This document shows positions 141 to 56,932 of a stretch of DNA of 64,000 nucleotides, in pieces. The position numbers and the translations under genes are program-made. The notes under the pieces are model-generated. The model did not search any database. It saw nothing but the letters and a program-made list of their open reading frames with translations, and had not been told where the DNA came from. Position 1 is the stretch's first letter. Every line of letters starts with the position of its first letter. The stretch is from positions 684 to 64,683 of the forward strand of contig CAZHTA010000002.1 of NCBI GenBank assembly GCA_964535515.1. The letters run 5' to 3'. The stretch is from an uncultured Gammaproteobacteria bacterium (lineage in GTDB: Bacteria > Patescibacteriota > Patescibacteriia > Magasanikbacterales > GWA2-37-8).

Positions 141-806
141 TCATTTAGATAATCGTCCGATATCTGCATAGATTTCTATCTATATAGATACCGCTCGGTT
201 ACCGCGCACCGAGGGGGGCCCTCCATCTGGGCTTTGGTATCAAGCGCGTCCTTTCTTTGGATCATCCCATACCTTGGCAGCGTTCGCTGTATGGGAGGTC
301 GGCCAGCTACGTGTGTAAGCTGGGCCACGCAAGTGGTTACTCGAACGCTCTCCTGCCTATTGCCACGCTCTCCAGGCAATCGGTGTACGACGACTTCGGT
401 CGTTGAGTAGGGAGAAACCAACGGAATCGTTGGGAGCAAAAATGGATCAGCACACTGATCCGACTCGTGGTTGGGCAAGCTTCGTCCGACCAACGAGAAC
501 ACTGGGTTCCTGCAAGCAGGGAGCAATTCTGCTTCAGGACGGGCCAGACGATTCTGGCAGTTTCCACCCTGACCTCGGGGGCATGCTCGCGACTACCGCG
601 TCGTGTAGACCATCGGTCGGAATGGCCAACCCCTCCTCTCTCGAGGAGGACACGCCGTCGACACGGTCTAGGGAACTCTAAAGCTCGAGGTAGGGACAAC
701 TACGGGTCCCGGGCCGACGTGTGAGTCGGTCTCTGCGTACGACTGGGATCGGAGGGGGCGCCGACAGCGCCCCCTCCATCCCCAAATTCTCATTGTTTTT
801 TTCTTG
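141..806 (+). ncRNA. candidate large structured ncRNA (unclassified), GC-rich, no credible ORF
   Basis: GC-rich block in an AT-rich genome with many local hairpins, including ACGAC-UUCG-GUCGU, CCUCCUC-ucuc-GAGGAGG and an 11-bp GGAGGGGGCGC/GCGCCCCCUCC stem. All six-frame ORFs overlap each other and are low-complexity. Promoter upstream and T-run/terminators downstream. Confidence 0.4.
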
Positions 807-829
807 AAAGAGAATAGTGAAAAATAAAA

Positions 830-858
830 AATTCCGTTAATAGCGGAATTTTTTGTTT
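830..858 (+). terminator. intrinsic terminator (AATTCCG-loop-CGGAATT then TTTTGTTT)
   Basis: Perfect 7-bp stem directly followed by a T-run; lies downstream of the GC-rich transcript and of an earlier GC hairpin (745-783) plus T7 run (796-802). Confidence 0.5.
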
Positions 859-906
859 CAAATTAATAACCTACTTTTTTACCAGCTAAAAAATTAAAAA
901 CAGATA

Positions 907-935
907 TTGACTCTCAAATATTTTTTTGTTACTAT
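907..935 (+). promoter_or_regulatory. sigma70-like promoter TTGACT-17nt-TACTAT for GC-rich small ORF
   Basis: Hexamers read directly; AGGGGA Shine-Dalgarno about 8 nt upstream of ATG at 968. Confidence 0.4.
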
Positions 936-967
936 CATACCCGGAAGAAAAATCTAGGGGACTCCAC

Positions 968-1297
968 ATGGCATTCGCTGACGCCAAATCCTTGATAAAG
1001 CCACTCACACTGCAAGATGCAGAGCTGTACGTCGGCAACCACAGACCGACAAAGGGTCGGATCGTGAGCCACTCAGAAAACACCAGAGGGCCGCTGTCTG
1101 GCATCATCGCCATTCAGTTGAAACTCCCAAACGGTGACTCCTACCACTGCGCCCCACTGACCGATCCGCTTGGCCTGAGGAAAGTCAACGAAGAGTTCTC
1201 GGTGACCCTGGAACTACGGGGCCGAACCATCCACCTAGAAATCAGCTCAGAACGGTACAACCGGCATGGCGCCAACAAGTCCAGCCACACCTTCTGA
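968..1297 (+). CDS. hypothetical protein (109 aa), GC-rich, foreign-looking composition
   Basis: ORF track frame (track start TTG 926; ATG at 968 has an SD). GC-rich codons. No recognisable domain. Followed by a terminator. Confidence 0.45.
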   Translation: MAFADAKSLIKPLTLQDAELYVGNHRPTKGRIVSHSENTRGPLSGIIAIQLKLPNGDSYHCAPLTDPLGLRKVNEEFSVTLELRGRTIHLEISSERYNRHGANKSSHTF

Positions 1298-1322
1298 TCT
1301 TCTTCCACTTCGGAGGACACAC

Positions 1323-1360
1323 CCCACGCTAGCGAATTCGCCCGTGGGGTTCGCTATTTT
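1323..1360 (+). terminator. intrinsic terminator (CCCCACG...CGTGGGG stem with inner GCG-AATT-CGC, then T-rich tail)
   Basis: Inverted repeat read directly, followed by ttcgctatttt. Confidence 0.5.
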
Positions 1361-3558: not shown

Positions 3559-6500
3559 ATGCCTATTCGAAGAATAATAAGGGGGAAGATAAAAGCAGAA
3601 AAACCAACTAAACCGGTAGAAGAAAAAGAGGAAAAAATTGAGATTGAACCAGAAATAATAAAAGCTACAATAACCCATAAAGGAACTAAGGAAAGTAAAA
3701 CTTCCTCAGAATACAGCGCTAAGAATATTACGGTTTTGGAAGGATTAGAAGCGGTACGTCGCCGACCTGGCATGTATATTGGTTCTACTGGTCCAGCTGG
3801 TTTACACCATCTTATCTGGGAAGTTGTCGACAACTCAGTCGACGAAGCTATGGCTGGCCACTGCGATCGTATTGAAGTAACTCTGCTCCCCGACCACATG
3901 GTAGAAGTACGTGATAATGGTCGTGGTATCCCAGTTGATATCCACCCTCAACAAGGCGTAAGTGCCTTGGAAGTTATTTTAACCAAACTACATGCTGGTG
4001 GTAAATTTGGTAATGGTGGCTATAAAATTTCTGGCGGTTTGCACGGTGTAGGTGTTACAGTTGTAAACGCTCTCTCTTCTTACTTAAAAGCTGAGGTTCA
4101 CCTTGGTGGAAAAATTTGGGAACAAGAATACACAGCTGGTAATCCACAAAAAAAAGTTAGGGCCGTTGGTACTTGTAAAGATACAGGTACCACTATTACC
4201 TTCCGAGCCGATGACACTATTTTTGAAACAACTAATTATGAATGGAAGGCGATCGTTGACCACCTACGTCAATATGCTTACCTTTCTAAAGGATTACATT
4301 TCATAATCTCCGATAAACGTAGTCCAGAAGAAAAAGCCGTTGATAAAACAGCAATCAGTTTCCCTAATCCAACTTACCAGTTTTACTTTGAAGGTGGTGT
4401 GGCTTCTTATGTTCGTTATATCAATCACAACAAAGAAGCTAAAGGAGAAAACATCTTTTACGCTGACAAAGAAGCGGACGACGTTAATGTCGAAATTGCT
4501 TTACAGTACAGCGAGGATTACACTGAATCACTTTTTGCTTTTACCAACAATATTCATAATCCTGATGGCGGTACCCACGTTCAAGGTTTCCGCACTGCTC
4601 TAACACGCGTCTTAAACAGTTATGCTCGTAACAAAAATATTTTAAAAGAGAAAGACGCCAACCTAACCGGCGAAGACGTACGCGAGGGTTTGAATGCTGT
4701 CATTTCCATTAAAATACGCGAACCACAATTTGAAGGACAAACAAAATCCAAATTAGGCAATACTGAAGCTAAAACAGCAGTTGAAACAATCATGGGTGAA
4801 GAATTTACCATCTTCTTGGAAGAACATCCTAAGGATGCCGAGGCCATTATTGGTAAATGTTTACTCGCCAGCCGTGCTCGCAATGCTGCCAAAATCGCGC
4901 GTGATGCCATTTTGCGCAAAGGTGCTCTAGAAGGATTTACTCTACCAGGCAAACTAGCGGACTGCTCTTCGCGTGATGCTGAAATTTCTGAATTGTACAT
5001 TGTTGAGGGCGACAGTGCGGGCGGATGTTTTGATGGAAATACCAAAGTTGCGTTGACTGATGGACGTAGCTTGTCATTTATAAAATTAGCAGAAGAATGG
5101 GAACAAGGTAAAACAAACTACTGTTACACAATAAAAAACAATGGCGAAATTGGTATTGAAAAAATATTACACCCACGCATTACCAAGAAAAACGCCACCG
5201 TAATTAAAATCACACTAGATAATGATGAAGAATTGATTTGTACCCCAGATCACAAATTTATGTTACGTGACGGTAGTTACGTCCAAGCTAAAGATCTAAA
5301 ATCCGACATTAGCTTGATGCCTCTCTACCGAAAAACTTCTGTTATAGGAGGTCGTATTACAATAGATGGATACGAGATGGTTCTAAACACAAATAGTAGA
5401 TGGAAATTTACTCATCTTCTTGCTGACGAATATAATTTAACACAAAATGTATATCCTCAAATTGAGAACGGACATAAACATCACAAAGATTTTAATAAAC
5501 TGAACAACAACCCAGATAACATAATCCGTTTGTCTAAAGAAGACCATTTACAAATTCACCGCGAACAGGCGCACAAAACTCTCCATCGTCCAGATTCTAT
5601 TGCTAAATGTAACGAAATTAAACGTTCGGCAATTTATAGAAAAAAAATCTCCGACACGATGAAAAATCTTGGTCCGATGTTAAGTGCCCGAGCCAAAAAA
5701 CAATGGCAAAACGAGGAATATAAAAAATTCATGACGCATAAATTTTTGGAATTTTATAATAACAACGCTGAATACCGAGAAAAAAATAACGAGCTGTTAA
5801 ATAAAATACAAAAAGAGTATTGGGGCAACCTAAACAACCGGACAACACAAGCTGAGCGTGTTAAGGAATCTTTTAAGAACCACCCCGACAGAAAAAAATG
5901 GTTAAGTGAATTAGCAAAAAACCAGTGGAGCAGTGCCGAACTCTTAAATTGGCGCGCACAACAAACCACCAAACAATGGACACCTGAATTTCGCACTAAA
6001 CGTCAACAAGCTTACGCCAAAACATATCTTCAACACAGCTTGTCCTTCGCTAAAACACTAGCCGAACGTGGATTAAATTTCATTTCCACTTACAACCAAG
6101 AAAGAAGCGCTTTGCCAAAACGTAATAATAACATTGTAAAATTTGAAACATTATTAAATCGTTTTTTTGCTGGCGACCAAAATCGATTAGTCGAAGCAGT
6201 GAACAACTTCAACCATAAAATTGTCAGAATAGAAAAAGTCACCAAAAAAGTTGACGTATACGATATTGAGGTGCCACACACCCACAACTTCGCTCTAGCA
6301 AGTGGCATTTTCGTACACAACAGCGCCAAACAAGGCCGCAACCGCGAATTTCAAGCCATTCTCCCACTACGCGGTAAAGTATTAAACGTAGAACGCGCAC
6401 GTCTGGACAAGATCTTAGCTAACAACGAATTGAAATCTCTAATTATTGCAATCGGCACTAATATTGGTGAACAATTCGATATTACTAAGTTACGTTATCA

Positions 6501-7053
6501 TCGTATCATTATCATGACCGATGCGGACGTTGATGGTGCCCACATCCGTACTTTACTTTTAACTTTCTTTTACCGCCATTTCCCTGAACTAGTAAACAAT
6601 GGTCATATATATATTGCCCAACCACCACTTTACAGTGTTAAAACTGGTAAAGAAATAAAATATGCTTACAATGATGAAGAAAAAGAATTGCTCCTAGCCG
6701 AATTAAGTAAAAACAAATCTGCTAAGGCTGAAGCAAAACAGAAAAAAGAAGAAGCTGAGGAAGAAGTACCAGCTGAAGAAAACGGTGAAGAAGGCGGAGA
6801 TGCCCAAGCTGAGTCAATTTTAGTGGGTGGAGTAAAAGTTAACATCCAACGTTACAAAGGTTTGGGAGAAATGAACCCGGAACAACTCTGGGAAACTACG
6901 ATGAATCCAGAAAAACGTTTGATGAAACAAGTAACAGTAGAAGACGCCGGACTAGCTAATGAAACCTTTGAAATTTTAATGGGCGAAGATGTCGAGCAAA
7001 GAAAAAAATTCATCCAGACCAACGCCAAATCCGTAAGTAATTTGGATGTATAA
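3559..7053 (+). CDS. gyrB: DNA gyrase subunit B, interrupted in-frame by an intein (extein plus intein = 1164 aa); about 45-aa N-terminal extension
   Basis: GHKL ATPase motifs (LEGLEAVRRRPGMYIGS, GLHHLIWEVVDNSVDE), the TOPRIM motif EGDSAGG split from SAKQGRNREFQAILPLRGKVLNVE, and the C-terminal tail. Confidence 0.9.
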   Translation: MPIRRIIRGKIKAEKPTKPVEEKEEKIEIEPEIIKATITHKGTKESKTSSEYSAKNITVLEGLEAVRRRPGMYIGSTGPAGLHHLIWEVVDNSVDEAMAGHCDRIEVTLLPDHMVEVRDNGRGIPVDIHPQQGVSALEVILTKLHAGGKFGNGGYKISGGLHGVGVTVVNALSSYLKAEVHLGGKIWEQEYTAGNPQKKVRAVGTCKDTGTTITFRADDTIFETTNYEWKAIVDHLRQYAYLSKGLHFIISDKRSPEEKAVDKTAISFPNPTYQFYFEGGVASYVRYINHNKEAKGENIFYADKEADDVNVEIALQYSEDYTESLFAFTNNIHNPDGGTHVQGFRTALTRVLNSYARNKNILKEKDANLTGEDVREGLNAVISIKIREPQFEGQTKSKLGNTEAKTAVETIMGEEFTIFLEEHPKDAEAIIGKCLLASRARNAAKIARDAILRKGALEGFTLPGKLADCSSRDAEISELYIVEGDSAGGCFDGNTKVALTDGRSLSFIKLAEEWEQGKTNYCYTIKNNGEIGIEKILHPRITKKNATVIKITLDNDEELICTPDHKFMLRDGSYVQAKDLKSDISLMPLYRKTSVIGGRITIDGYEMVLNTNSRWKFTHLLADEYNLTQNVYPQIENGHKHHKDFNKLNNNPDNIIRLSKEDHLQIHREQAHKTLHRPDSIAKCNEIKRSAIYRKKISDTMKNLGPMLSARAKKQWQNEEYKKFMTHKFLEFYNNNAEYREKNNELLNKIQKEYWGNLNNRTTQAERVKESFKNHPDRKKWLSELAKNQWSSAELLNWRAQQTTKQWTPEFRTKRQQAYAKTYLQHSLSFAKTLAERGLNFISTYNQERSALPKRNNNIVKFETLLNRFFAGDQNRLVEAVNNFNHKIVRIEKVTKKVDVYDIEVPHTHNFALASGIFVHNSAKQGRNREFQAILPLRGKVLNVERARLDKILANNELKSLIIAIGTNIGEQFDITKLRYHRIIIMTDADVDGAHIRTLLLTFFYRHFPELVNNGHIYIAQPPLYSVKTGKEIKYAYNDEEKELLLAELSKNKSAKAEAKQKKEEAEEEVPAEENGEEGGDAQAESILVGGVKVNIQRYKGLGEMNPEQLWETTMNPEKRLMKQVTVEDAGLANETFEILMGEDVEQRKKFIQTNAKSVSNLDV
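5026..6321 (+). other. intein (432 aa) inside gyrB with HNH-type homing endonuclease domain
   Basis: Starts with Cys directly after GDSAGG. Block B TPDH. Ends VHN followed by extein Ser (SAKQGR). Internal NGHKHHKDFNKLNNNPDNIIRLSKEDHLQIH resembles an HNH motif. Frame verified (5026-3559 and 6322-3559 both divisible by 3). Confidence 0.8.
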
Positions 7054-7090
7054 GAAACAATTAAACATAATAAAAAACCACCTCGCAAAA

Positions 7091-7122
7091 GATGGTTTTT
7101 TATTTCCTTCTATTTTGAACTA
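7091..7122 (+). terminator. intrinsic terminator after gyrB (AACCACC...GATGGTT then T6)
   Basis: Hairpin with one G-U pair followed by a T-run. Confidence 0.5.
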
Positions 7123-7180
7123 ATTCAAAACAAAAGGGACTTGGCGGTCCAGCTGTGCCCGTAAAGGGAGCTGGACCGCC
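7122..7180 (-). terminator. intrinsic terminator for minus-strand GC-rich operon (12-bp GGCGGTCCAGCT/AGCTGGACCGCC stem then T-run on minus strand)
   Basis: Perfect 12-bp inverted repeat at 7143-7180; the minus strand continues as aagtcccttttgtttt. Confidence 0.55.
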
Positions 7181-7264
7181 GAGATAGGAATGACGAGACG
7201 AACGACTCACCCCGATCATCCGACAGCCGCGAAGGCCGAGCAGACGAATCGAGGGGTGTGACGT

Positions 7265-7750
7265 TTAGTTTAGATCGGGGAGATCGAAAAGGCCGAGGAG
7301 CACACCGAATCCGTAAGCGACCCCATTGGTGACAATGGCGGCGCATAACCCCCACCAGATGGCCTCGAGGAAGTATCCGCACGAGAACCATGCGGAGTAG
7401 TCCTTCCCGTCTCCAGCCGCGAGCGCCCAGCGCCACCCATAGTTAGCGGCGAGGAGATGGAGCAACACCGCAACCACAGTGACCACCACCGCCAACGGCC
7501 GGCGGGCGTCGCTGTCCAAGTTGCTGCGGAGGACCAGTGCCCAAACAACCAGGGACACCACTGGCCCGATTGCGAAGGCCATGACCACGCCGAACCAATC
7601 GACTCCATCCAGCTTCGCGCTGCACCAGACGGAATCATCGTACCCGCCACCACCGGCCAACGCAAGGCCGGGGAGAAGGAACATTACCGTGAAGGCCACG
7701 GCGACCATCGACACCAGCAAGCAGGTTTTCCAGGACCTGTTCAAGTTCAC
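7265..7750 (-). CDS. small integral membrane protein (about 4 TM), GC-rich, holin-like by size and topology
   Basis: ORF track. Hydrophobic segments. ATGA start/stop overlap with the upstream CHAP gene (translational coupling). High-GC codon usage. Confidence 0.55.
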   Translation of the reverse strand: MNLNRSWKTCLLVSMVAVAFTVMFLLPGLALAGGGGYDDSVWCSAKLDGVDWFGVVMAFAIGPVVSLVVWALVLRSNLDSDARRPLAVVVTVVAVLLHLLAANYGWRWALAAGDGKDYSAWFSCGYFLEAIWWGLCAAIVTNGVAYGFGVLLGLFDLPDLN

Positions 7751-9159
7751 CTCCTAGACCAGCCCACGCAGGGCAAGTCTTCGATTGTTCCGCGAACCCA
7801 CCAGAACCCTCCGACGAATTCCTGGAGGGTGGCGCACTCGTACCAGCGTGAGGTATTTTGCTGAACGACACACACGGCATCGTCCTTCACCTCAACGACA
7901 ATCGCGACATGCCCAGGGGCACGATGGCTGTTAGCCGCCACACTCTCCCGACCGTCACGATCAAAGATCAGGATATCATTCACCGCCGGCTTCACCGGCG
8001 AACCGTTCAGGAGCACCGACAAGCCCTTAGCGTTTCCGCTATAGAAATAGCTGTCAGCGTGACCGGTGCGCTCCATGTTCCTATGACCCAGGACGGTGGC
8101 GTAGAACCGATTGACCAGCTCCACACACTGCCACCGTTGGCCATAGCCAGACCGCTCCGATTCACCTTCACCGCGGGGGTGCTGATGAATCTCCGCCCCA
8201 CGATAAAGGCCAACGACCGCTCCCTGCTCCGCTTTGATACCAGGCGGAACAAGGACCACCACACCATTCTTGTCTCCGATACGTGGGAACTGCTCCCCAC
8301 GACCAAAGATAAACGACATGACGGTATCGGTGTAATACCCGAACCGACCGTTGCCGGCCAATCCGAGCCACCCACTTGCCTCCCCGAAGGTCGGCCGATA
8401 GTGAGTGAACACCGACGCGGCACTCGACTTTTCCTCATTGTCCATCTGGATGCCCGAGAGCTCCCAGATGTAAACGAGATCGAAGCCAAGCAACGATATA
8501 TCGGACAATTTTTCCACCCGGAACGGATCCGTGCCGAAGCGCTTACCGTTCAAGTGAAAAAAGTGATAACCCCACCACTCGCCCTGATACTCGAAAGCCA
8601 GAACGAGGTGTGTGTTGATTCCAGCCTTTGCCGCAAGAACTTGCGGGTCCATGCGACTCTGCTGAAAGTGATAGCCGGCCACGTAAAGCCGACTCGAGGA
8701 CAACACCTTGGAGAGATCACTGTCGAACGGGACCAATTCCTTAATCTTGTCCTCAGTTGAGGTTGAGAAATCCTTGGTCCGATCAAAAACTTTGCGGAGG
8801 TCGTCCGCATTGTCCTGACCGAACCGCCAAGCCACCGTCACCTCGAGCTTTTGTCTGCCCAAAATGAAGTTAGCAGCCTGGATCACGGCCGAAGCGCAAC
8901 GCTCGTTGTCCCACATCGACTGCGGGATAAACGCCGGCACCGGGCCGTTACCCGGACGGTCCACAAGACTATCCAGGAGTGATCGCACTTCTACCGGTGC
9001 GCGCGGGCTAAGGGGGAACTTACTCCCCCATTCTTCTTCCACATGGTGACGAGCCACGCAGAAGATCGTTACGAGAACCATCACGACCGAAGTCGCAAAA
9101 ATCCCCGTCACAAAAATCGCGTTGCGCACTCGTCTGCGCTCGGTCCGGCTCAGTCTCAC
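7747..9159 (-). CDS. membrane-anchored protein with C-terminal CHAP-domain peptidoglycan amidase/peptidase, GC-rich (GTG start)
   Basis: N-terminal TM (IFVTGIFATSVVMVLVTIFCV). C-terminal QCVELVNRFY...GHVAIVVEV matches the CHAP catalytic Cys/His pattern. GAGGTGA SD before GTG. About 60% GC by eye. Confidence 0.6.
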   Translation of the reverse strand: MRLSRTERRRVRNAIFVTGIFATSVVMVLVTIFCVARHHVEEEWGSKFPLSPRAPVEVRSLLDSLVDRPGNGPVPAFIPQSMWDNERCASAVIQAANFILGRQKLEVTVAWRFGQDNADDLRKVFDRTKDFSTSTEDKIKELVPFDSDLSKVLSSSRLYVAGYHFQQSRMDPQVLAAKAGINTHLVLAFEYQGEWWGYHFFHLNGKRFGTDPFRVEKLSDISLLGFDLVYIWELSGIQMDNEEKSSAASVFTHYRPTFGEASGWLGLAGNGRFGYYTDTVMSFIFGRGEQFPRIGDKNGVVVLVPPGIKAEQGAVVGLYRGAEIHQHPRGEGESERSGYGQRWQCVELVNRFYATVLGHRNMERTGHADSYFYSGNAKGLSVLLNGSPVKPAVNDILIFDRDGRESVAANSHRAPGHVAIVVEVKDDAVCVVQQNTSRWYECATLQEFVGGFWWVRGTIEDLPCVGWSRR

Positions 9160-9370
9160 CTGTCACCTCGTGATTGTGTGGGTTGTTGACGTTTAGCAAA
9201 TATCTCCACAGCGATTGGCATCGCTGTCATTCCTATCAATTGTCAAAGATCTGTTTCCAAACAGCTAAAAGCCTCAGCTTCCGGCTATTCAAAGAAACAG
9301 ATAATAATAGCATAAATTAGCGAAAAAGTCAATATCCTGTCGTCTGTTATTACTATCCCCATTGAATATG

Positions 9371-14047: not shown

Positions 14048-14120
14048 GCGCCTGTAGCTCAGGGGTTAGAGCACTGCCCTTATAAGGCAGGGGTCGATGG
14101 TTCGAAGCCATCCAGGCGCA
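14048..14120 (+). tRNA. tRNA-Ile with anticodon UAU (reads AUA)
   Basis: Cloverleaf folded by hand: acceptor GCGCCUG/CAGGCGC, D-arm GCUC..GAGC, anticodon stem CUGCC/GGCAG with loop cuUAUaa, T-arm GAUGG-UUCGAAG-CCAUC. No encoded CCA. Confidence 0.7.
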
Positions 14121-14128
14121 CTAAACAT

Positions 14129-27003: not shown

Positions 27004-27014
27004 TATAAACAAAA

Positions 27015-37205: not shown

Positions 37206-37230
37206 TATTATATCCTAAAAAAGAGAAAAA

Positions 37231-37315
37231 AACAACCATAAACAAAAACACCATCCGCAAAAACCTCCTCGCTATATCTACAAATATTTGTAAACATAGC
37301 GGGAAGCGGATGGTG
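37231..37315 (-). terminator. intrinsic terminator for GC-rich island D gene (CACCAUCCGC...GCGGAUGGUG 10-bp stem, then T-run on minus strand)
   Basis: Inverted repeat 37249-37258 with 37306-37315; the minus strand continues tttttgtttatgg. Confidence 0.5.
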
Positions 37316-37342
37316 TCTTGTTGTCTCCTCTCCCCGGGCGCT

Positions 37343-37921: not shown

Positions 37922-38131
37922 TTGGCCGTTCCTTTCGTTCTAGGGGTTAACTTGGCCATCTTGGCCGAAGGGAAGTTGGGATTTTCGGTCCCAGCCTTCT
38001 TTTGTGAATATTTAATTAAAATTAAACATACCAAAAGAAAGCAGGGACACATTTTTAAAGAACAACGTAAAATATCACGTTTCATTGATTTTGTCAAGAA
38101 TACCTGTTAAAGTATGGTGGTATTTATACCT

Positions 38132-39235
38132 ATGAAAATCGGCATTGACGCGCGCATGTACGGCCCTAACCAAGGTGGCATTGGACGATACATTGAGCAA
38201 TTAATAAAACAACTACAAAAGATTGATCTAAATAATCAGTATGTTTTGTTTTTACGTTCTGATAACTTTACTGACTGTGAAATCACTAACCCAAACTTTA
38301 AAAAAATATTAGCTGACATTAAGTGGTATAGCCTAAAAGAACAAACTAGTTTTAGCGGAATCATTAAAAAAGAGTCTGTTGACCTAATGCACTTCCCCCA
38401 CTGGAACATACCTTTGTTTTACCGCGGTAAGTTTATCATCACTATCCATGATTTAATCATGTATCACTTTCCTCGCACTGAGGCCTCTACTCACGGACCT
38501 TTGATATATTGGGTAAAAGACAAGCTGCATCGCTTGATCTTATCATCTGCTGCCAAACGCGCTATTGCCATTATTGCCACCAGCGAATTTACCAAAAACG
38601 ATATCGTAAAAGAGTTGGGGGTTAGTCCCGAAAAAATCACCGTTACCTACCAAGCTCCTTTTTCTAAAAATACTTCAACTGAACCACTGCCTAGTGAAAT
38701 AAAAAAACCATACGCTTTGTATGTTGGAACTAGCTACCCCCATAAAAATCTTTCACGACTGCTACGTGCCTGGAAGAAAATCGAAGAAAGAAGCCCCGAG
38801 CTTAACCTGGTACTAGCGGGAAGAAAAAACTTTTTTTATGACCAATTGATTGGCTCACCAGAATTTAAAAACTGTGAAAGAATAATATATATACCTAACC
38901 CAACTGACGGGCTATTAGAGACACTCTACCAAAATGCTTACCTTTTTGTCTTTCCTTCACTTTATGAAGGTTTTGGTCTACCCCCACTAGAAGCAATGTT
39001 GCGTGATATTCCCGTTGCCTCATCTAACGGATCCTGCTTACCAGAAGTCTTAGGTAACGCCGCCTGGTATTTTGACCCCAACGACACCGAAGACATGGCT
39101 CGTAAAATTTTAATGACTTCTGACAACCCTGATCTTCGTATTACTCTACAAAAATCCGGTGCTGAACTACTAAAAAAATACTCTTGGGAAGAGCTGACCC
39201 ACAAGACACTTCGGCTCTACCAAAAAAGTGGATAA
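38132..39235 (+). CDS. glycosyltransferase family 4/1
   Basis: EGFGLPPLEAM motif. Start at MKIGIDARMY. Confidence 0.75.
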   Translation: MKIGIDARMYGPNQGGIGRYIEQLIKQLQKIDLNNQYVLFLRSDNFTDCEITNPNFKKILADIKWYSLKEQTSFSGIIKKESVDLMHFPHWNIPLFYRGKFIITIHDLIMYHFPRTEASTHGPLIYWVKDKLHRLILSSAAKRAIAIIATSEFTKNDIVKELGVSPEKITVTYQAPFSKNTSTEPLPSEIKKPYALYVGTSYPHKNLSRLLRAWKKIEERSPELNLVLAGRKNFFYDQLIGSPEFKNCERIIYIPNPTDGLLETLYQNAYLFVFPSLYEGFGLPPLEAMLRDIPVASSNGSCLPEVLGNAAWYFDPNDTEDMARKILMTSDNPDLRITLQKSGAELLKKYSWEELTHKTLRLYQKSG

Positions 39236-47927: not shown

Positions 47928-49595
47928 ATGCCGGACGAATCGGCACCGGTGCCAACACAACCAACACCCGTGCCAGCCGACAACAACCAAAAACCAGAAA
48001 CAATAAACTTACCAATCGAAGGTAATGTTGTTAGTGCTATAGGAACCGGCGGAGCAACGGCTAAATTAGAAAATGGCAAGGTAAATATTAAATTTGATCT
48101 TCCAAAAGAAGTTAAGCCAACTACCACACAACCAACAAACAAAACAACAGATGAGCCCGAGGCACCCGCCTCAGAAGAAATAGCCACTGGCGGTGATGAC
48201 GAAACAGAAACCCCGCCTAATGCTCCAACAACTAATACAGAACCTACCCCACCACCCCCTCCTTTGCCAGCTCCAGAAAAAACAGGACAACCAACGGATG
48301 AACAAAATACACCGGCTAAGCCATTAGCACCACTACCTTCATCACCTGCTCCAGAACCAGGTACCCCAACTACTGAAAAAGCACCTCAAGGAACACCTAA
48401 CCAAAACGATCAAACTCCACCACCAACCAGTGATGCTTCTTTGCCACCACCAGGCGGACAAACACCAAACAGCGAAGAAGGTGCTCCTCCTACTAACCCA
48501 AATGAACCAACGCAACCAGTTCCTGGACAAGGACAGCCACCAACACCAGGTGCACAACCACCAGGCACGCCAACCACTCCAAATCCAACCAAACCAGGAA
48601 ACCCGGTTACTGGGGGTTTAAAAAATGCTCAAGCCTTAGCCAGAGGCGCCAAGAAAGGTCTTGGCGGTGCAAAGAAGCTTGCTGGCGGCGCAAAAAATTT
48701 AGTAACCAAACCAAAAGAAACAATGAAAAAAGCTGGCCAAAAATTGGCTAATGCTGGAAAAGATGGTTTAAATAAAATGGGCGCAGCAGCAAAACAAGGA
48801 GTTAAAAACAAAGCTTCTGATCTTGCTAATAGTTTGCGTACAACAAAATCAAAAAAAAGAAGACTACTTAAAGATATAGACAAGATTTCAAAAGAAATCA
48901 CTGCGCTTCAGGGCGGTCTTGATAACCTAAAATCATCTCATGCTCTAATGCTGCTTAAATTCTTCTTCCCAGGACTGTATAGCAAGATAGCTGGAATAAC
49001 AGAAATAAAAGGAAACGTTTCACAAAAAGCAAAAGTAAAAGCTCTCGGCGCACAACTAACCGCTCTTAAAACAGCTAGAGGGGCACTACAATCAGCGCGA
49101 TCGGCCGCAGCGGTATTAGATGCTTTAGTACTTTTGGTAGAAATGATAACATCAACACTAGGAACTGTAATATTCCCAATTTTAATAATATTGTTATCAC
49201 CATTAATCGTCCTAGCGCTAACGATAGTATTTTTTGCAGTTGGTGGAACATTTTCCCGAGCTTTTAAACAACTAGTAAGCCAGATTAGCAAACTAATCGA
49301 ACCGCTAGAAAAAACATTGGATAAGGAAAAGAATATATTGGGGAAGATGGAAACGAAAAAAGGTAAACGAGCAGAATTAGAAAACCTAGATAAAGAAGAG
49401 GCTCAACAACAAAAACCACAACAACAACCACCTCCTGGACAACAACCCACTCCAGCACAACCACAACCAGATACTGTTCCTCCACAACCCTCTCCTAGTG
49501 CTCAACCCACACCACCGCAGCCCGCTTCTGAACAATCACCCGGACCACAAGCACAACCAACGCCGCCAGCAGAAAACAATCCTTCAACTACATAA
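47928..49595 (+). CDS. Pro/Thr/Gln-rich low-complexity membrane protein (555 aa)
   Basis: Pro-rich N- and C-terminal tails (PTPPPPPLPAPE..., QQPPPGQQPTPAQPQP) flanking a hydrophobic helix (IFPILIILLSPLIVLALTIVFFAV); start 2 nt after the clpC stop. Confidence 0.5.
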   Translation: MPDESAPVPTQPTPVPADNNQKPETINLPIEGNVVSAIGTGGATAKLENGKVNIKFDLPKEVKPTTTQPTNKTTDEPEAPASEEIATGGDDETETPPNAPTTNTEPTPPPPPLPAPEKTGQPTDEQNTPAKPLAPLPSSPAPEPGTPTTEKAPQGTPNQNDQTPPPTSDASLPPPGGQTPNSEEGAPPTNPNEPTQPVPGQGQPPTPGAQPPGTPTTPNPTKPGNPVTGGLKNAQALARGAKKGLGGAKKLAGGAKNLVTKPKETMKKAGQKLANAGKDGLNKMGAAAKQGVKNKASDLANSLRTTKSKKRRLLKDIDKISKEITALQGGLDNLKSSHALMLLKFFFPGLYSKIAGITEIKGNVSQKAKVKALGAQLTALKTARGALQSARSAAAVLDALVLLVEMITSTLGTVIFPILIILLSPLIVLALTIVFFAVGGTFSRAFKQLVSQISKLIEPLEKTLDKEKNILGKMETKKGKRAELENLDKEEAQQQKPQQQPPPGQQPTPAQPQPDTVPPQPSPSAQPTPPQPASEQSPGPQAQPTPPAENNPSTT

Positions 49596-51559: not shown

Positions 51560-53125
51560 ATGGTAAAAAAAATAAGACTAAAAATTCTCCTAATTGGATT
51601 AACTGCCGTCTTATTGTTTTTGCCACAAACCACTCTTTTCGCCGCTACTAAAAGTCACATTGGCGATCCTTGTATAAACGATATCACTAATGCTGATTGC
51701 GAAGTTGATGGTGCGGATTTAGATTGTGAAAAAAGTAATAAAAAAGACGCTACAAAATATTGCACTGCAAACAGTGACTCCGACTGCATTGCTGAATACG
51801 GTACCCCCGCCAAAGGAAGTTGGGTGCGCAGTAGTGGAACAGATTATACTTATAATCTTGCCTATTGTTATAACTCCGCCACTAAAGAAGTAAAAACCGC
51901 CGCTGGAATAAACACCGACGTCAGCCCAATAGGCAACTTAGTGGGCGCTGTATTTGATTCCCCCGCTACTCAGGCTGCATTATTAGAAGAAGTAAAATCT
52001 TTTAAACCAGGATTAGAAATTCGTTTGCCCGGTTTAACATTTAGTGACCTATCTAACACTATCGACGAGGAAGGATACCTTCATATCCCTTGGATTGGCG
52101 AGTTTATCAAAGCCCTATACAATTTTGGCTTAGTAATTGTTAGTATCGTGGCAGTGGTGATGATCATAATGCAAGGAGCAAAGATTGTTGTTTCGGGTGG
52201 AGAATCAAAGGTAGAGGGATACAAAAAGATTGGACAAATAGCAATTGGTTTGGTTATTGCTTGGGGATCGTATGCCATACTCTATACTATCAATCCAGCG
52301 TTGGTTGAATTTGAGAGCTTGAAAGTTCGCTATATCCAACCAGACAAATTAGAACAATATAATGAATATGTTAACCCATCCGATGCTAGCCCGATTATAA
52401 CTGGCGGAGCATCCACTTTTGGCGCTAATGGTATTCCTGATTTTAAACAATGCGACTCACGTTGGAAAGATTTACCTTACGATGGTGTATACAAAGGGAA
52501 AAAACTAGGATGTTTTAGACAAGTAAAAAACAAAAAAAACCAATATGAAGGCTCGATCTGTACCAGTGGTTGTGGCGTCACTTCTTTAGCTGATGTATTG
52601 GTATATTATGGCTACAGTAATATTACCCCAGTAGACACAGCCCGATATGCCGTAGAAATTGGCGCACGGTCTGGTTGTAATGGCTCAATCGGATCATTGC
52701 TTTGCAATAAAATCGCTACTAAGTGGCCTGACCTCAAATGCAACAACATCAATCCCCAAAAAGAAATAAGCAAAATAGTTTCGCTGCTGCGAGAAAAAAA
52801 ACCCGTAGTATTTTCCTGCCACGATTGTCACGGCTTCACCAAAACCGAACAAGACATCACCTTTGAGGCACACTACCTGGTATTAACCGGAGTAGACGAT
52901 AGTGGTAACTGGTTTTCAGTAAATGATCCAGGAAGGCAAAGTGGAATGGTAAGAATATCCGCTAAGGAATTCGCTGAAGGAAGAGTGGCAACTACTTTCG
53001 CAGTAGAAAAAAAAGACGGCAGCACTGCAAATACTACTAATGGTGAATGTGTTACAATAAGTGCAACATTTAGCGCCACCCAAGCTGACTGCTTAGCACA
53101 AGACGGCACTTGGCAACCACAATAA
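51560..53125 (+). CDS. secreted Cys-rich protein: signal peptide, Cys-rich N-domain, two-TM VirB2/TrbC-like module, C-terminal C39-like cysteine peptidase domain
   Basis: QCDSRWKD...GCGVTSLADVLVYYG...HYLVLTGVDD resembles the C39/papain-like peptidase Cys and His. Central module near-identical to the downstream paralogue. Confidence 0.6.
   Translation: MVKKIRLKILLIGLTAVLLFLPQTTLFAATKSHIGDPCINDITNADCEVDGADLDCEKSNKKDATKYCTANSDSDCIAEYGTPAKGSWVRSSGTDYTYNLAYCYNSATKEVKTAAGINTDVSPIGNLVGAVFDSPATQAALLEEVKSFKPGLEIRLPGLTFSDLSNTIDEEGYLHIPWIGEFIKALYNFGLVIVSIVAVVMIIMQGAKIVVSGGESKVEGYKKIGQIAIGLVIAWGSYAILYTINPALVEFESLKVRYIQPDKLEQYNEYVNPSDASPIITGGASTFGANGIPDFKQCDSRWKDLPYDGVYKGKKLGCFRQVKNKKNQYEGSICTSGCGVTSLADVLVYYGYSNITPVDTARYAVEIGARSGCNGSIGSLLCNKIATKWPDLKCNNINPQKEISKIVSLLREKKPVVFSCHDCHGFTKTEQDITFEAHYLVLTGVDDSGNWFSVNDPGRQSGMVRISAKEFAEGRVATTFAVEKKDGSTANTTNGECVTISATFSATQADCLAQDGTWQPQ
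51985..52327 (+). repeat. about 340-bp near-identical (about 90% by eye) direct repeat, copy 1 of 2, encoding the two-TM module
   Basis: Direct alignment with 53707-54047 shows long identical runs (for example ttacaattttggcttagtaattgttag, caaaggtagagggatacaaaaagattggacaaat). Confidence 0.8.
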
Positions 53126-53130
53126 TTATT

Positions 53131-54747
53131 ATGAAAAAAATATTAATAACGACCTTCATAATATTAACAACCATAATCCCACAGGCTACACTAGCCAGTG
53201 TTAGTTGTGGTGCAGTCTACTGCCAATCTGACCAGATTTGCAACAACGATCCAGCTAGCCCTGCTTGCTTATCTAAAACAAACCAGGATTGCACTCAGAG
53301 CAGCGACTGTGGATCAGGTGTTTGTACTATTCCAGCTGGTGAATCAAAAAACAAATGTTTTGTCCAATTATCAACCGGCCTACCCATCGGTTCTGTTTGC
53401 AATGTTAATTCTGAGTGTCTATCAAATGATTGCGAAGGTAGTCAGAAAAAAAATGGGGCAGGAAATGCAACTAGCTATTGCGATTGCAATGACGCTGGCG
53501 ACTGTCAACAAAAATGGGGGGCACCCGCTAGTGGAGAATGGGAATGTGTTGATGGCGCGTCAGTCACTTTTGATTTAGACTATTGTGTAAACGAAGCAAA
53601 CAAAAGGATAGAGCCCACCCTACCAGAATACAAAAATGATGCCAGCATGTTTGGTAAACTGTCTGATGCTCTTTTTGACACAAAGGCTTTACAAGCCAAC
53701 CTGCTCCAAGAAGTTAAATCATTTAAACCTGGATTAGAAATCCGCTTACCCGGTTTAACATTTAGTGATTTAGCCAAAACCGTTGATTCTGAAGGATATA
53801 TCCAAATTCCTTGGATTGGAGAATTCATCAGAGCATTATACAATTTTGGCTTAGTAATTGTTAGCATCGTGGCCGTGGTAATGATCATCATGCAGGGAGC
53901 GAAGATTGTTGTATCGGGCGGAGAATCAAAGGTAGAGGGATACAAAAAGATTGGACAAATTGCAGTTGGTTTGGTTATTGCTTGGGGATCATATGCTATA
54001 CTCTACACTATTAACCCAGCATTAGTTGAATTTAAAAGTTTAAAAATAAAATACATTGAAACTATCCCCTTGGATGTTTTTGATAAAGGAGAAGCCCCGA
54101 CCCCATCTCACCCTAAAGCACTAAATGCTACCAACTTTGATGCTTTGTTCCAATCATACGGCAACTGCATCTCCGTTGATTGGCATGTTATCAAAGCCAT
54201 GGCATATATAGAATCATCACTAGATTCTAGTGTAGTTAATAGTTTAGGATTCGCTGGGCTTTTCCAAACAAAAACAAACTTCTGCCAAAGCTCTTTAAAA
54301 AGATACGGCTTAGATAACAAATGTACAGAACTAACAAATCCCGAGCTCAGCACTGCTGTCGGAACAAGCATGATACGCGACTCTATCAACCAAATTAAAA
54401 AGAAATGCCCTAATATTGATGGTGACTCATTAGCATATTTTATCTACATCGGACACCAAAGCGGACAAGGAACACTTTCCAATGTTATTGCCCAAACTTG
54501 TACATACACCAACGCATATACTTATATCCATAGTTCTTGGGAAAAACAAAGTGGCGGTAAATATGCTGACTCTACCGGCAAAAAAAGAACAGCTGTACAT
54601 ATTGCTACCGAAGCAGATAAAGGTGCAAAAAAAATGATTGGCTTGGTACAAGGAATGGGTGTAACAAATGCTTTAACTACTGTCGATAAAAACAAATGTC
54701 CACTCGACACCGCTAGCCTTAGATTTATCCTTACTGTAACACCGTAA
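53131..54747 (+). CDS. secreted Cys-rich protein: signal peptide, Cys-rich N-domain, two-TM VirB2/TrbC-like module, C-terminal lytic transglycosylase (SLT) domain
   Basis: AMAYIESSLDSSVVNSLGFAGLFQ matches the SLT catalytic-Glu and GLxQ motifs. Start placed at MKKILITT. Confidence 0.6.
   Translation: MKKILITTFIILTTIIPQATLASVSCGAVYCQSDQICNNDPASPACLSKTNQDCTQSSDCGSGVCTIPAGESKNKCFVQLSTGLPIGSVCNVNSECLSNDCEGSQKKNGAGNATSYCDCNDAGDCQQKWGAPASGEWECVDGASVTFDLDYCVNEANKRIEPTLPEYKNDASMFGKLSDALFDTKALQANLLQEVKSFKPGLEIRLPGLTFSDLAKTVDSEGYIQIPWIGEFIRALYNFGLVIVSIVAVVMIIMQGAKIVVSGGESKVEGYKKIGQIAVGLVIAWGSYAILYTINPALVEFKSLKIKYIETIPLDVFDKGEAPTPSHPKALNATNFDALFQSYGNCISVDWHVIKAMAYIESSLDSSVVNSLGFAGLFQTKTNFCQSSLKRYGLDNKCTELTNPELSTAVGTSMIRDSINQIKKKCPNIDGDSLAYFIYIGHQSGQGTLSNVIAQTCTYTNAYTYIHSSWEKQSGGKYADSTGKKRTAVHIATEADKGAKKMIGLVQGMGVTNALTTVDKNKCPLDTASLRFILTVTP
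53707..54047 (+). repeat. copy 2 of 2 of the two-TM-module repeat
   Basis: As for copy 1; divergence is far lower than in the flanking N- and C-domains. Confidence 0.8.
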
Positions 54748-54767
54748 AATTTGTTAAATGACTAACT

Positions 54768-56108
54768 ATGAATAAAAATACCATCATCTTCTCTTGTTCT
54801 CATTGCGGCGCCCAATTCCAAAAATGGATTGGACGATGTTTGGAGTGTGGCCAGTGGGGAACAATTGAAAAAGCACAACTAACTGGCGATAAGTCTGATA
54901 AAAAAGAAGACGTTGAATACGCACCAGTTAAAACAGTAAGTTTAAAAAATGTTGAAGGGAAAAACACTTTAAGGATAAAAACCAACACCGAAGAATTGGA
55001 CCGAGTTTTAGGCGGCGGAATTGTCCCGGGCAGTTTAATTCTTCTAGGCGGCGAACCAGGCATTGGCAAATCTACTTTAGCTCTTCAAATCGCCACCCTC
55101 TTGTCCCCTACCTTGTACTTTTCCGGTGAAGAATCAATTGAACAAATAAAATTACGCGCTGACCGATTAAAAATTACCGGCGCTGGCTTGGAAGTTGGCA
55201 ACACCACATCAGTAGAAAATATTATCGCCACCATAAAAACAAAAAAGCCAAAACTTGCGATTATTGATTCAATCCAAACTGCTCGTTCCAATGAAGCTGA
55301 CGGCGAAAGCGGCAGCATTACCCAGGTTCGTGCCGCTACAGTTAAGTTTATGGAAACCGCCAAAGCAACTGGCACAACAATTGTCCTAATCGGACAAGTA
55401 ACTAAAGAAGGTGCGGTAGCTGGACCAAAAACACTAGAACACCTAGTCGATGTAGTGATGTATCTTGAAGGTGACAAATACCACCAATATCGAATCTTGC
55501 GAGCAGCTAAAAATCGCTTTGGTTCTACTGACGAAATCGGCGTATTCTCAATGACTGAAAAAGGGTTAGAAGAAGTTAAAAATCCTTCAGCAGCATTCCT
55601 AGCTGGCCGTGGTGAACCAGTACCAGGTACCGCCATCACTTGTCTTATGGAAGGCAGCCGACCAATTCTGGTAGAAATTCAAGCGCTAGTAACAAAAACA
55701 AATTTTGGCTTCCCCCAACGCCGTGCCTCAGGATTTGATTTAAACCGTTTGCAAGTTTTAATTGGTGTCTTATCCAAACGCGCTAAATTACCACTTGAAT
55801 CATATGATGTCTTTTTAAATGTTGTCGGCGGTGTAAATGCTGAGGAACCAGCCGCTGATCTCGCTGTCATCCTCGCTCTCGCCTCAGCTTTAAAAGAAAA
55901 AACATTACCCGCTGATTTAGCAGCATTCGGTGAAGTCGGACTAGGCGGCGAAGTACGACCAGTATCACAACAAAAAAGACGACTAGAAGAAATTAAAAAA
56001 ATGGGGTTAAAATTTGCCGTAACGCCAGTAACAAACGAAAAAATTAGTGACATGAAAATTGCACCAATAAAAAACGTCCAAGAAGTAGTAGAGAAAATAG
56101 TGAAGTAA
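54768..56108 (+). CDS. radA: DNA repair protein RadA (Sms)
   Basis: N-terminal C4 zinc finger (CSHCGAQFQKWIGRCLECGQWG), RecA-like P-loop GEPGIGKST, KNRFG motif, Lon-like C-terminal domain. Confidence 0.9.
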   Translation: MNKNTIIFSCSHCGAQFQKWIGRCLECGQWGTIEKAQLTGDKSDKKEDVEYAPVKTVSLKNVEGKNTLRIKTNTEELDRVLGGGIVPGSLILLGGEPGIGKSTLALQIATLLSPTLYFSGEESIEQIKLRADRLKITGAGLEVGNTTSVENIIATIKTKKPKLAIIDSIQTARSNEADGESGSITQVRAATVKFMETAKATGTTIVLIGQVTKEGAVAGPKTLEHLVDVVMYLEGDKYHQYRILRAAKNRFGSTDEIGVFSMTEKGLEEVKNPSAAFLAGRGEPVPGTAITCLMEGSRPILVEIQALVTKTNFGFPQRRASGFDLNRLQVLIGVLSKRAKLPLESYDVFLNVVGGVNAEEPAADLAVILALASALKEKTLPADLAAFGEVGLGGEVRPVSQQKRRLEEIKKMGLKFAVTPVTNEKISDMKIAPIKNVQEVVEKIVK

Positions 56109-56126
56109 AAAAGAAAAACAAAAAGT

Positions 56127-56163
56127 AAAAAAATCCACCTGCCAAATTAGGCAGGTGGTTTAA
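56127..56163. terminator. bidirectional intrinsic terminator (CCACCTGCC-aaatta-GGCAGGTGG) shared by radA(+) and the island E genes(-)
   Basis: A-run upstream gives a T7 run on the minus strand; TTTAATT on the plus strand. Confidence 0.55.
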
Positions 56164-56282
56164 TTCCAGGGAGGCCGACGACGGACACATCCAGTTCGTC
56201 GCGTACATGTACGCATTGAACCTTCAGCATCCGTCGCCGGCTATGAGGAGGGAGAACCGTAGAACCTAAGGCCAAAGACGCC

Positions 56283-56540
56283 TCAGGCAGTCTCGTCGGT
56301 CGGAGCGACGACAGCCTGAGCAGCGGCCTGCTGCTCAATCTCGTACTCGTACACCGCTCTGTGTACGACGCTGACCGGAATCAGCGCCAAGGGCGGTGTC
56401 TCATCATGACCCCGCTTCACGAGCGCGCACACGAAGTGTTGCTCACGAAACGTTCCTCCTATTTTGGGAGGCGGGCCCGGGCGCGTCACATCGACAGCCC
56501 ACTTGTCACCTTTCTTGGTCGTGAAGAACTTATCGCCCAT
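56283..56540 (-). CDS. small hypothetical protein (85 aa), GC-rich island E, downstream member of an overlapping pair
   Basis: ORF track. ATG with GAGG 6 nt upstream. Overlaps the upstream gene by 11 nt. N-terminus KKGDKWAVDV is faintly DUF2188-like. Confidence 0.45.
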   Translation of the reverse strand: MGDKFFTTKKGDKWAVDVTRPGPPPKIGGTFREQHFVCALVKRGHDETPPLALIPVSVVHRAVYEYEIEQQAAAQAVVAPTDETA

Positions 56541-56763
56541 CTCGAGCCTCTTTCGCGGCAGGTGGCACCGGAACCACCAAGTTCATGGCGTTCATGCGTC
56601 CGAAACGCGCCCCGTTTTTGGGGTTGAACACCAAGACCTCGACCGCCTGCTGACCCTCGACGAAGTCGACGTGTGCTGCTGCGACGAGGAGCTTCTGCTC
56701 CCGGTCGCTGCGCTTATACACAACGACCTTCCCGTCGAGTCGCGGATCTCTATTCTTCGCCAC
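56530..56763 (-). CDS. small hypothetical protein (about 77 aa, GTG start), GC-rich island E, upstream member of an overlapping pair
   Basis: Start moved to GTG at 56763, which has a strong GAGGAGG SD 5 nt upstream (the track Met at 56883 lies in AT-rich sequence). Candidate TTGACT-17-TACGAT promoter on the minus strand at about 56850-56880. Confidence 0.4.
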   Translation of the reverse strand: MAKNRDPRLDGKVVVYKRSDREQKLLVAAAHVDFVEGQQAVEVLVFNPKNGARFGRMNAMNLVVPVPPAAKEARDGR

Positions 56764-56932
56764 TTCTTCCTCCTCGGAAATCCAACCCAGCCAAAATGGC
56801 GGGAAAAGCGAGGCGTCGTGCCTCTCAGTTCCACATGGGTTAAAAACAGAAATAATCGTATCAAAAAACCAGCAAAAAGTCAATGCTTTGCCGGTTTTAA
56901 TGGAAAAAATATATTTTAAAATTTTTGTCTCA

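Follow-up and report, generated by a model that had tools for sequence, protein, structure and literature searches.

A stretch of 64,000 nucleotides from an uncultured bacterium (GenBank assembly GCA_964535515.1, contig CAZHTA010000002.1, positions 684 to 64,683; hereafter the window) carries six short GC-rich units between AT-rich core genes. One of these units, a two-gene cassette for a predicted CHAP-domain cell-wall hydrolase, has kept its high GC content through long vertical descent, and this composition is a lasting property of the cassette rather than a sign of recent transfer. A sequence-only reading of the same DNA had recognized five sharply bounded GC-rich islands and ascribed them to repeated acquisition from a high-GC donor, for which an actinobacterial-type host of an episymbiont, or the phages of such a host, were the obvious candidates.

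We propose that the units are self-contained accessory cassettes, each consisting of promoter, cargo and terminator, in intergenic slots of a Magasanikbacteria-like chromosome of the candidate phyla radiation (CPR). Their cargo would comprise the CHAP amidase/peptidase and its partner, five small proteins with few or no homologues, and one RNA of about 700 nt without coding signal. Once DNA has been taken up, the cassettes would most likely turn over by homologous recombination within the conserved flanks, and the GC-rich composition could be held by selection on the transcript. We prefer the latter reading because CHAP mRNA is far more structured than dinucleotide- and synonymous-shuffled versions of itself in several orthologues. 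Such structure would suit an mRNA that is stable or throttled in translation and that encodes an enzyme with the potential for self-lysis. This explanation as a whole, including accessory cassettes, homologous turnover, long-term maintenance of CHAP GC content and selection on the transcript, is held with moderate confidence, at a little better than even chances.

Composition and boundaries of the GC-rich cassettes

The window has a mean GC content of 40.5%. The islands, which total 5,068 nt (7.9% of the window), reach 57.3%, against 39.1% for the remainder, and GC content steps by 15-33 points between neighbouring 100-nt blocks at the ten boundaries that were measured. At third codon positions (GC3) the distribution is bimodal: the seven open reading frames (ORFs) of the islands lie at 0.64-0.78, the core median is 0.33 (median absolute deviation 0.025; genes of at least 150 amino acids), and nothing lies between them, the maximum being 0.39 among core genes of at least 600 nt. 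Since GC3 separates island ORFs from the core, the island signal resides at synonymous sites. Sharply bounded, GC-enriched islands are thus confirmed, and all five on the original list are GC-rich; the first, however, splits into two units around a gap of 154 nt at 22% GC. This leaves six promoter-to-terminator units, encoding one non-coding RNA candidate of about 700 nt and seven ORFs, which we label by island (I1a and I1b, I2a and I2b, I3, I4, I5a and I5b; Table 1). The flanking core genes encode FtsW, GyrB, SecE/NusG/L11, RNase J, a 2-hydroxyacid dehydrogenase (2-HADH), MgtE, glycosyltransferases (GT4), RadA and RecG.

Five of the six units are preceded by a promoter-like site with a 17-nt spacer and a TG-extended -10 element, called as a sequence match in a consensus scan and placed in AT-rich DNA just beyond the GC-rich body. 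Terminator-like hairpins lie 3' of the units, and several are bidirectional and shared with a convergent core gene. Both features agree with the earlier description of autonomous transcription units in intergenic gaps. The palindromes that had been listed as possible boundary repeats are not insertion scars but transcript hairpins or terminator elements. One of them, at 9207-9226 upstream of the CHAP gene, is replaced at the aligned position of three relatives (L002, L071 and L075; L numbers denote related sequences throughout) by a hairpin of other sequence (AGCGGC-AAAA-GCCGT), which identifies it as a transcript element rather than an att site.

The CHAP cassette has remained GC-rich through vertical descent

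The closest named relative with shared synteny is a Candidatus Magasanikiibacteriota metagenome-assembled genome (MAG; L008), whose core proteins are 64-85% identical and whose gene order, FtsW-p320-GyrB-CHAP-SecE-NusG-L11, is that of the window. By synteny and identity the genome resembles Magasanikbacteria-like Patescibacteria of the CPR. The premise of an episymbiont with an actinobacterial host finds no support, and nothing here shows a Saccharibacterium or such a host.

The CHAP tree contains two clades, each at one chromosomal position. Clade A (the window, L002, L071, L075, L008 and L007) sits between SecE and GyrB, and clade B (L003, L017, L072 and L014) between SWIB and LeuRS. Because the clades match two fixed loci, we conclude that the gene was inherited vertically after two placements. 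Its GC3 ranges from 0.51 to 0.84 against local core medians of 0.28-0.63, an excess of 0.11-0.40 that every one of the 15 genomes shows. Where the window and L008 encode identical amino acids, the identity of third positions is 0.36 in CHAP; composition alone predicts 0.28, and core genes give 0.48-0.60. As 0.36 is near the compositional expectation, the synonymous sites of CHAP have largely turned over and are close to saturated; both copies are GC-rich after that turnover, so simple amelioration should have erased any donor signature. Recent acquisition does not hold for island 2, which synteny, the matching tree and the GC3 excess in every genome show to be ancestral and syntenic in its clade, an outcome that the sequence-only reading had itself named as one that would refute it.

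Excess structure in cassette transcripts

Segments of 300 nt of coding sequence were folded and compared with dinucleotide shuffles. Core segments have a mean z-score of -0.50 (sd 1.21, minimum -3.0, n = 41). The four CHAP segments score -2.9, -4.3, -8.7 and -4.3, I5a scores -3.1 and the first 300 nt of I4 score -2.5; island and core segments differ with p = 8.5e-4 (Mann-Whitney). The stretch at 8180-8520, within the CHAP gene, reaches z = -6.45 (100 shuffles). Against synonymous-codon shuffles that keep both protein and codon usage, CHAP scores -4.6 in the window, -2.6 in L002 and -5.3 in L003, and core genes score about 0. Sequences from genuinely GC-rich genomes also fold with z-scores of about 0, so GC content alone is not the cause of the excess structure in CHAP.

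A bolder proposition is that in Magasanikbacteria-like CPR bacteria the cassette set is actively kept GC-rich and partly hyper-structured, its composition being a selected, heritable property of the transcripts and not a fossil of transfer. We advance this only tentatively and consider it rather doubtful in so general a form. If true, it might yield long-lived, nuclease-resistant or throttled mRNAs together with a large new non-coding RNA, perhaps tied to an attack or attachment phase, and it would turn around both the customary interpretation of GC islands and the expectation of AT-richer accessory DNA.

Intergenic slots are points of gain, loss and replacement

Related genomes show the slots to be points of gain, loss and exchange, which are empty, hold an orthologous cassette or hold unrelated GC-rich cargo. 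In the FtsW/UvrB slot of island 1, of which the FtsW side alone lies inside the window, L056 has 12 bp between the genes (FtsW 87% identical) and L058 is empty, while L002 and L071 carry an unrelated GC-rich transmembrane protein of 194 or 172 amino acids. The SecE/GyrB slot of island 2 is empty in L058 and L060. In the distant relative L059 (793-4421) it holds a different island of 3.6 kb with three genes (365, 208 and 497 amino acids) at 49.5% GC over a background of 34.5%; the last gene encodes a GHKL/HATPase_c_3 protein, which makes the module possibly one of a defence type, and the sister L061 has no island. In GCA_964536725.1, which has about 80% nucleotide identity to the window, the genes abut at the RNase J/2-HADH slot, where the window has a PALP-family gene and island 3. 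The MgtE/GT4 slot of island 4 is occupied in the same assembly by another cassette of about 500 bp with 56-74% GC and a lipoprotein-like ORF of 140 amino acids; homology to the window ends near 37248 at one edge and breaks off within the promoter at the other, no more than a few bases from the cassette.

Several islands are accessory: islands 1, 3 and 4 have empty or differently filled sites in relatives and are sporadic in the sense used for genomic islands. Island 2, by the same measure, is syntenic in at least six genomes of its clade. A PALP-family gene (25795-27003) and a region with genes of 342 and 479 amino acids (29560-32024) have AT-rich native composition and are absent from GCA_964536725.1.

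As had been noted before, there is no integrase or transposase in or beside the islands. Direct and inverted repeats flanking them are no longer than chance predicts, the tRNA genes of the window are located elsewhere and do not serve as targets, and no repeats or common ends were found among the islands, which speaks against the idea of a single mobile vehicle that scattered its cargo. With integrase, tRNA target, repeats and common ends all missing, the conserved flanks would offer the simplest route of turnover, by homologous recombination.

The promoter-like site of I1a (103-135) has 19 bases (TATATTGACAAAAAGGCAA) identical to the promoter of an unrelated GC-rich cassette at a different slot in L076 (18050-18082, minus strand). 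This match could mean that a promoter module moves along with cassettes, or that the shared bases bind a regulator. Upstream of I3, the C10-A-T8 run in the position of the spacer could make a putative promoter there prone to slipped-strand (phase-variable) changes.

Origin of the GC-rich composition

Selection on the transcript is our favoured cause of GC-richness; for the four cassettes that have hardly any relatives or none, its main rival is a GC-rich donor pool not yet sampled. A rival account holds that the islands were acquired recently and repeatedly from a high-GC donor outside the CPR, for example an actinobacterial host or its phages, and that their GC content is an unameliorated donor signature. 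The sharp composition boundaries and the presence or absence of islands 1, 3 and 4 among close relatives fit such a history, and the scarcity of homologues is what a poorly sampled mobile pool would produce, which keeps it viable for islands 1, 3, 4 and 5 individually. The database searches argue otherwise. Seventeen full-length CHAP relatives were found in 5.8 billion protein clusters, and those in GTDB representative genomes belong to Patescibacteria MAGs only (Magasanikbacteria, Uhrbacteria and Parcubacteria); several of the CHAP-relative records are mislabelled 'Gammaproteobacteria'. No island protein has a relative outside Patescibacteria in those clusters or in 1.84 billion representative proteins, and each of the other island proteins apart from CHAP has no relative or one. 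Three queries of IMG/VR (CHAP, I3 and I4) gave no relative, 50,697 GenBank phage records and 72,556 PLSDB plasmids contained no match to CHAP, to I1a or to the five small proteins joined into one query, and the small island proteins belong to no PHROGs or PADLOC family. Moreover, island 2 is syntenic, vertical and still GC-rich after its synonymous sites neared saturation, the promoters follow the AT-rich consensus of this genome itself, and nothing shows the organism to be a Saccharibacterium. A high-GC host or its phages find no support as the source, and we judge recent import from outside the CPR unlikely as a general account. The four cassettes whose relatives are scarce or absent may have come in recently from a GC-rich pool that sampling has missed.

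Several observations weigh against selection on the transcript and against the wider explanation. Excess structure is not general, as I3, I1b, I2b and the last 300 nt of I4 fall within the core z-score distribution. Among CHAP orthologues, one hairpin (FDLVYIWE codons) is common to clade A and the long stems are lineage-specific; since only that hairpin is common, it is a folding tendency and not a particular fold that is conserved. The tempo of CHAP evolution is also ambiguous. Between L002 and L071, synonymous-site similarity is 0.83 for CHAP against 0.59-0.77 for flanking core genes, with long near-identical stretches; between the window and L002, CHAP is 54% identical in amino acids against 82-96% for the core, and the partner is unalignable. 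This pattern fits either synonymous constraint combined with fast protein evolution or exchange of alleles within a pool. Polarised synonymous changes in CHAP and its partner number 30 from GC to AT and 17 from AT to GC, implying an equilibrium GC3 of about 0.51 compared with the current 0.65; these small counts leave slow decay possible, and the core control for them is unusable because its outgroup is saturated and AT-richer. Accessory genes are not uniformly GC-rich either, the PALP gene and the region at 29560-32024 being native in composition. Slot comparisons cover islands 1-4, the island 5 site (RadA/RecG) being on no long related contig. Finally, cassette turnover through homologous flanks after DNA uptake is the most likely route, and one that we infer from the comparisons above.

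GC-biased gene conversion (gBGC) could lift GC content without selection on function if the slots are recombination hot spots. Repeated replacement of cargo at the slots and mosaic near-identical stretches of CHAP between lineages would suit this process, as would the nearly equal per-site rates in CHAP (AT-to-GC 0.066, GC-to-AT 0.063). Conversion tracts depend on homologous flanks and would be expected to extend GC gradients into them, yet the observed drop is 15-33 points over 100 nt and GC3 is ordinary in the neighbouring core genes. The effects of gBGC in bacteria amount to a few GC3 points, not 30-45, and structure beyond that of synonymous shuffles is left unexplained. We consider this account improbable. 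Assembly chimerism, which the sequence-only reading had rightly asked to exclude and by which foreign GC-rich fragments were stitched into an AT-rich MAG, is unlikely to the point of being hardly credible even though the source is evidently an NCBI contig of 111 kb assembled from a metagenome. Over 37202-39128, which takes in the two island 4 junctions, a Logan contig from a separate assembly matches the window at 100% identity. Nine further independent assemblies from different samples (L002, L071, L075, L007, L008, L003, L017, L072 and L014) repeat the AT-core/GC-CHAP/AT-core arrangement, and AT-rich promoters of native type, together with terminators common to neighbouring core genes, frame every island.

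GC-deviant islands are routinely taken as evidence of recent transfer. Here they are swappable mini-cassettes, GC-richer than the core, and at least one has been inherited vertically for long enough that its synonymous sites near saturation; literature searches returned no account of CPR genomes with cassettes that stay GC-rich. If selection on RNA structure or stability maintains their GC content, composition-based calls of horizontal gene transfer in CPR genomes would be misleading, and a layer of post-transcriptional control would exist in organisms with almost no recognizable regulators. The cassettes also flag candidate host-interaction genes, including the CHAP hydrolase with its hypervariable partner and small secreted or unassigned proteins, as well as a candidate new large RNA.

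Cargo of the cassettes

Island 2 is a two-gene operon on the minus strand, with the CHAP gene (I2a) followed by a membrane partner (I2b). Residues 338-435 of I2a match Pfam PF05257 (E = 3.9e-10, 40.5 bits against a cut-off of 26), and among 17 sequences the catalytic residue Cys345 is invariant and His417 nearly so. The AlphaFold2 model has a predicted local distance difference test score (pLDDT) of 85 and a papain-like fold, and its top matches in the PDB are Gsp amidase (E = 1.6e-8) and the CHAP domains of PlyPy, LysK and LysGH15; in PHROGs, weak endolysin-type matches are limited to the CHAP domain. The partner gene lies 3' of CHAP in L002, L071, L075, L003 and L016, with a common N-terminal signature ('AFAGGGGG...C') and an almost unalignable remainder, and I2b has two marginal matches in PHROGs/PADLOC. 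Its divergence is evident between L002 and L071: core proteins there are 91-99% identical and CHAP 90%, the partner just 54%. CHAP and its fast-evolving membrane partner are most likely an extracytoplasmic cell-wall hydrolase module. I2a shares the Pfam match, the Cys/His pair and the fold with CHAP peptidoglycan hydrolases and Gsp amidases of PF05257. It differs from these enzymes in its membrane anchor, in a conserved middle domain of about 280 residues without clear structural match, in its constant pairing with a hypervariable membrane protein, and in its confinement to Patescibacteria in these searches; it is a predicted hydrolase, known from sequence and model.

Within the CHAP gene, the central coding region has near-identical nucleotides in L002 (5500-6000), L071 and L075 (alignment A8, columns ~600-1050). 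At synonymous third positions, the flanking core genes of these three relatives show differences of 23-41%. In the window gene, the most structured part of the mRNA (z = -8.7) is the stretch orthologous to this region (CHAP coding sequence, nt 660-960).

I1a is a candidate large RNA. It has no codon periodicity, and all six frames are negative under an island codon model trained on clearly coding island genes. Its folding z-score is -7.2 (20 shuffles) and, with an independent script, -6.4 (40 shuffles), although a z-score alone is no proof of a functional RNA, given that the CHAP coding mRNA scores similarly. Positions 186-745, within the core, have no match in Rfam 15 at gathering thresholds or at E<=10, and in the whole window gathering thresholds return only RNase P and tRNAs. 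A decayed gene was considered and rejected: the four ORFs have no Pfam match, and no tblastx or nhmmer relative was found in about 1 Mb of related loci. I1a recalls the large, GC-rich structured RNAs of bacteria in Rfam, such as OLE, GOLLD, ROOL and HEARO: it is about 700 nt long, forms a GC peak in an AT-rich genome like that of RNase P in this window, has its own promoter- and terminator-like sites, and combines a strongly negative folding z-score with the absence of a coding signal. Unlike them, it matches no family and has no homologue found.

The small proteins have few relatives. I1b has no match in Pfam, PHROG, PADLOC or the 5.8 billion protein clusters, and I3 has just three weak partial matches (E 3e-4 to 5e-6) in the 1.84 billion representative proteins. 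The single homologue of I4 is 71% identical, equal in length and free of indels, which supports I4 as a real protein; its structure model is too poor for use (pLDDT 43). I5a and I5b were considered as a type II toxin-antitoxin pair (78 and 85 amino acids, 11-nt overlap), and neither matches Pfam, PADLOC or PHROG. The proposed frames of I1b, I3, I5a and I5b are the best-scoring ones under the island codon model. A query concatenating these four proteins found no match in the 5.8 billion protein clusters, not even to themselves, so they are not in the protein collection. In L076, the ORFs called over the cassette at 17443-18042 lack codon periodicity and look wrong-frame over a clear lipoprotein-like ORF of 140 amino acids. 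Several GC-rich ORFs (968-1297, 27163-27504 and 56283-56766; 17443-18042 in L076) seem to be overlooked, or read in the wrong frame, by gene callers adapted to an AT-rich background.

Comparison with known mobile units

The cassettes recall phage morons, which, in the concept of Hendrix and colleagues, are reportedly autonomous promoter-gene-terminator units of deviant composition between essential phage genes. Each unit has its own promoter- and terminator-like sites, lies between two conserved genes and deviates sharply in composition; close relatives may have or lack a given unit, and most of the small cargo genes have no known function. In contrast to morons, the units are chromosomal, between housekeeping genes, with no phage genes nearby and no phage homologues, and the CHAP unit has long been inherited vertically.

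Acquired DNA is usually AT-richer than the core. Classical genomic islands share with the cassettes a deviant GC content and GC3, an accessory nature (islands 1, 3 and 4) and many genes of unknown function. The units differ in being 0.4-2.1 kb and not 10-100 kb long, in having no integrase, tRNA target or direct repeats, and in being GC-richer than the core, with a deviation that persists in island 2 without amelioration. Integron cassettes are set apart by their attC sites, their arrays and a neighbouring intI; the units have no inverted-repeat element in common, are scattered singly and come with no integrase. Patescibacteria have been reported to carry hundreds of genomic islands (PMC12455944).

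Feature coordinates and further observations

Table 1. Positions in the window of the GC-rich islands, their genes and their putative transcription signals
Feature	Position	Strand	Description
GC-rich segment, island 1	186-785		60.2% GC (sliding GC)
GC-rich segment, island 1	940-1356		56.1% GC (sliding GC)
GC-rich segment, island 2	7125-9230		57.7% GC (sliding GC)
GC-rich segment, island 3	27055-27565		55.0% GC (sliding GC)
GC-rich segment, island 4	37253-37995		55.2% GC (sliding GC)
GC-rich segment, island 5	56160-56850		58.6% GC (sliding GC)
I1a promoter-like site	106-134	+	TTGACA-17-TAATAT, TG-extended; 10/12 consensus matches
I1a	142-855	+	Candidate GC-rich non-coding RNA, ~700 nt; core 186-785 at 60% GC; 3' hairpins 757-783 and 826-854
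I1b promoter-like site	907-935	+	TTGACT-17-TACTAT with TG motif
I1b	968-1297	+	ORF, 109 amino acids; GC1/2/3 = 0.55/0.44/0.69
I1b terminator-like hairpin	1330-1356	+	Convergent with FtsW (1368-2465, minus)
Island 2 operon 3' end	7069-7181	-	GC hairpin 7141-7181 and bidirectional terminator 7069-7104 common to GyrB; T-tract conserved in L002
I2b	7265-7750	-	Membrane partner, 161 amino acids; signal peptide, poly-Gly, Cys, then transmembrane segments; GC3 0.78
I2a	7747-9159	-	CHAP protein, 470 amino acids; N-terminal transmembrane helix, conserved middle domain, predicted C-terminal CHAP amidase/peptidase; GC3 0.67
Island 2 5'-untranslated-region hairpin	9207-9226	-	ACAGCGAT-n4-ATCGCTGT; among the palindromes of the sequence-only reading
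Island 2 operon promoter-like site	9304-9332	-	TTGACT-17-TATTAT with TG; aligns with TTGACA-17-TATAAT in L002
I3 3' hairpin	27055-27095	-	Adjoins bidirectional terminator 27012-27044 common to the PALP gene
I3	27163-27504	-	ORF, 113 amino acids, acidic; GC3 0.69
I3 upstream region	27530-27566	-	TTGACA, then C10-A-T8 homopolymer spacer; no call in the consensus scan
I4 3' long-stem hairpin	37253-37316	-	CACCATCCGC...GCGGATGGTG; homology with relative stops ~37248
I4	37343-37921	-	ORF, 192 amino acids; GC3 0.64
I4 promoter-like site	38069-38097	-	TTGACA-17-TATTTT with TG; only the -35 box aligns with the relative's promoter, downstream unrelated
RadA/island 5 operon terminator	56135-56158	-	Bidirectional
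I5b	56283-56540	-	ORF, 85 amino acids; GC3 0.69
I5a	56530-56766	-	ORF, 78 amino acids; GTG start after GAGGAGG; 11-nt overlap with I5b
Island 5 operon promoter-like site	56855-56883	-	TTGACT-17-TACGAT with TG

Three weaker rises in GC content were considered as islands and rejected. Two of them (48.1-48.7 and 49.4-49.9 kb) fall within one ORF whose GC3 is 0.24 and whose GC1 and GC2 are high. This ORF (47928-49595, 555 amino acids; GC1 0.59, GC2 0.50) has strong AT and GC skew; the biased composition of its protein, an amino-acid effect, imitates a weak GC island. The rise at 28.8-29.1 kb is RNase P RNA by its Rfam match. That match (28764-29235) spans 472 nt against a model of 367 positions, and the RNA of a relative has 525 nt, lengths that imply sizeable lineage-specific insertions.

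GyrB (3559-7053), which borders island 2, contains an intein of about 430 residues (Pfam Intein_splicing, residues 512-921; roughly 5029-6321) of AT-rich native composition; GyrB of the close relatives L002, L071 and L058 has about 730 amino acids and no intein. Two neighbouring paralogous genes of 521 and 545 amino acids at 51560-54747 share a 300-nt stretch that is 86% identical (repeat D1). The window also encodes a tRNA-Ile with anticodon UAU at 14048-14121 (ARAGORN), a tRNA that is uncommon in bacteria, where AUA is usually read by a lysidine-modified CAU tRNA.

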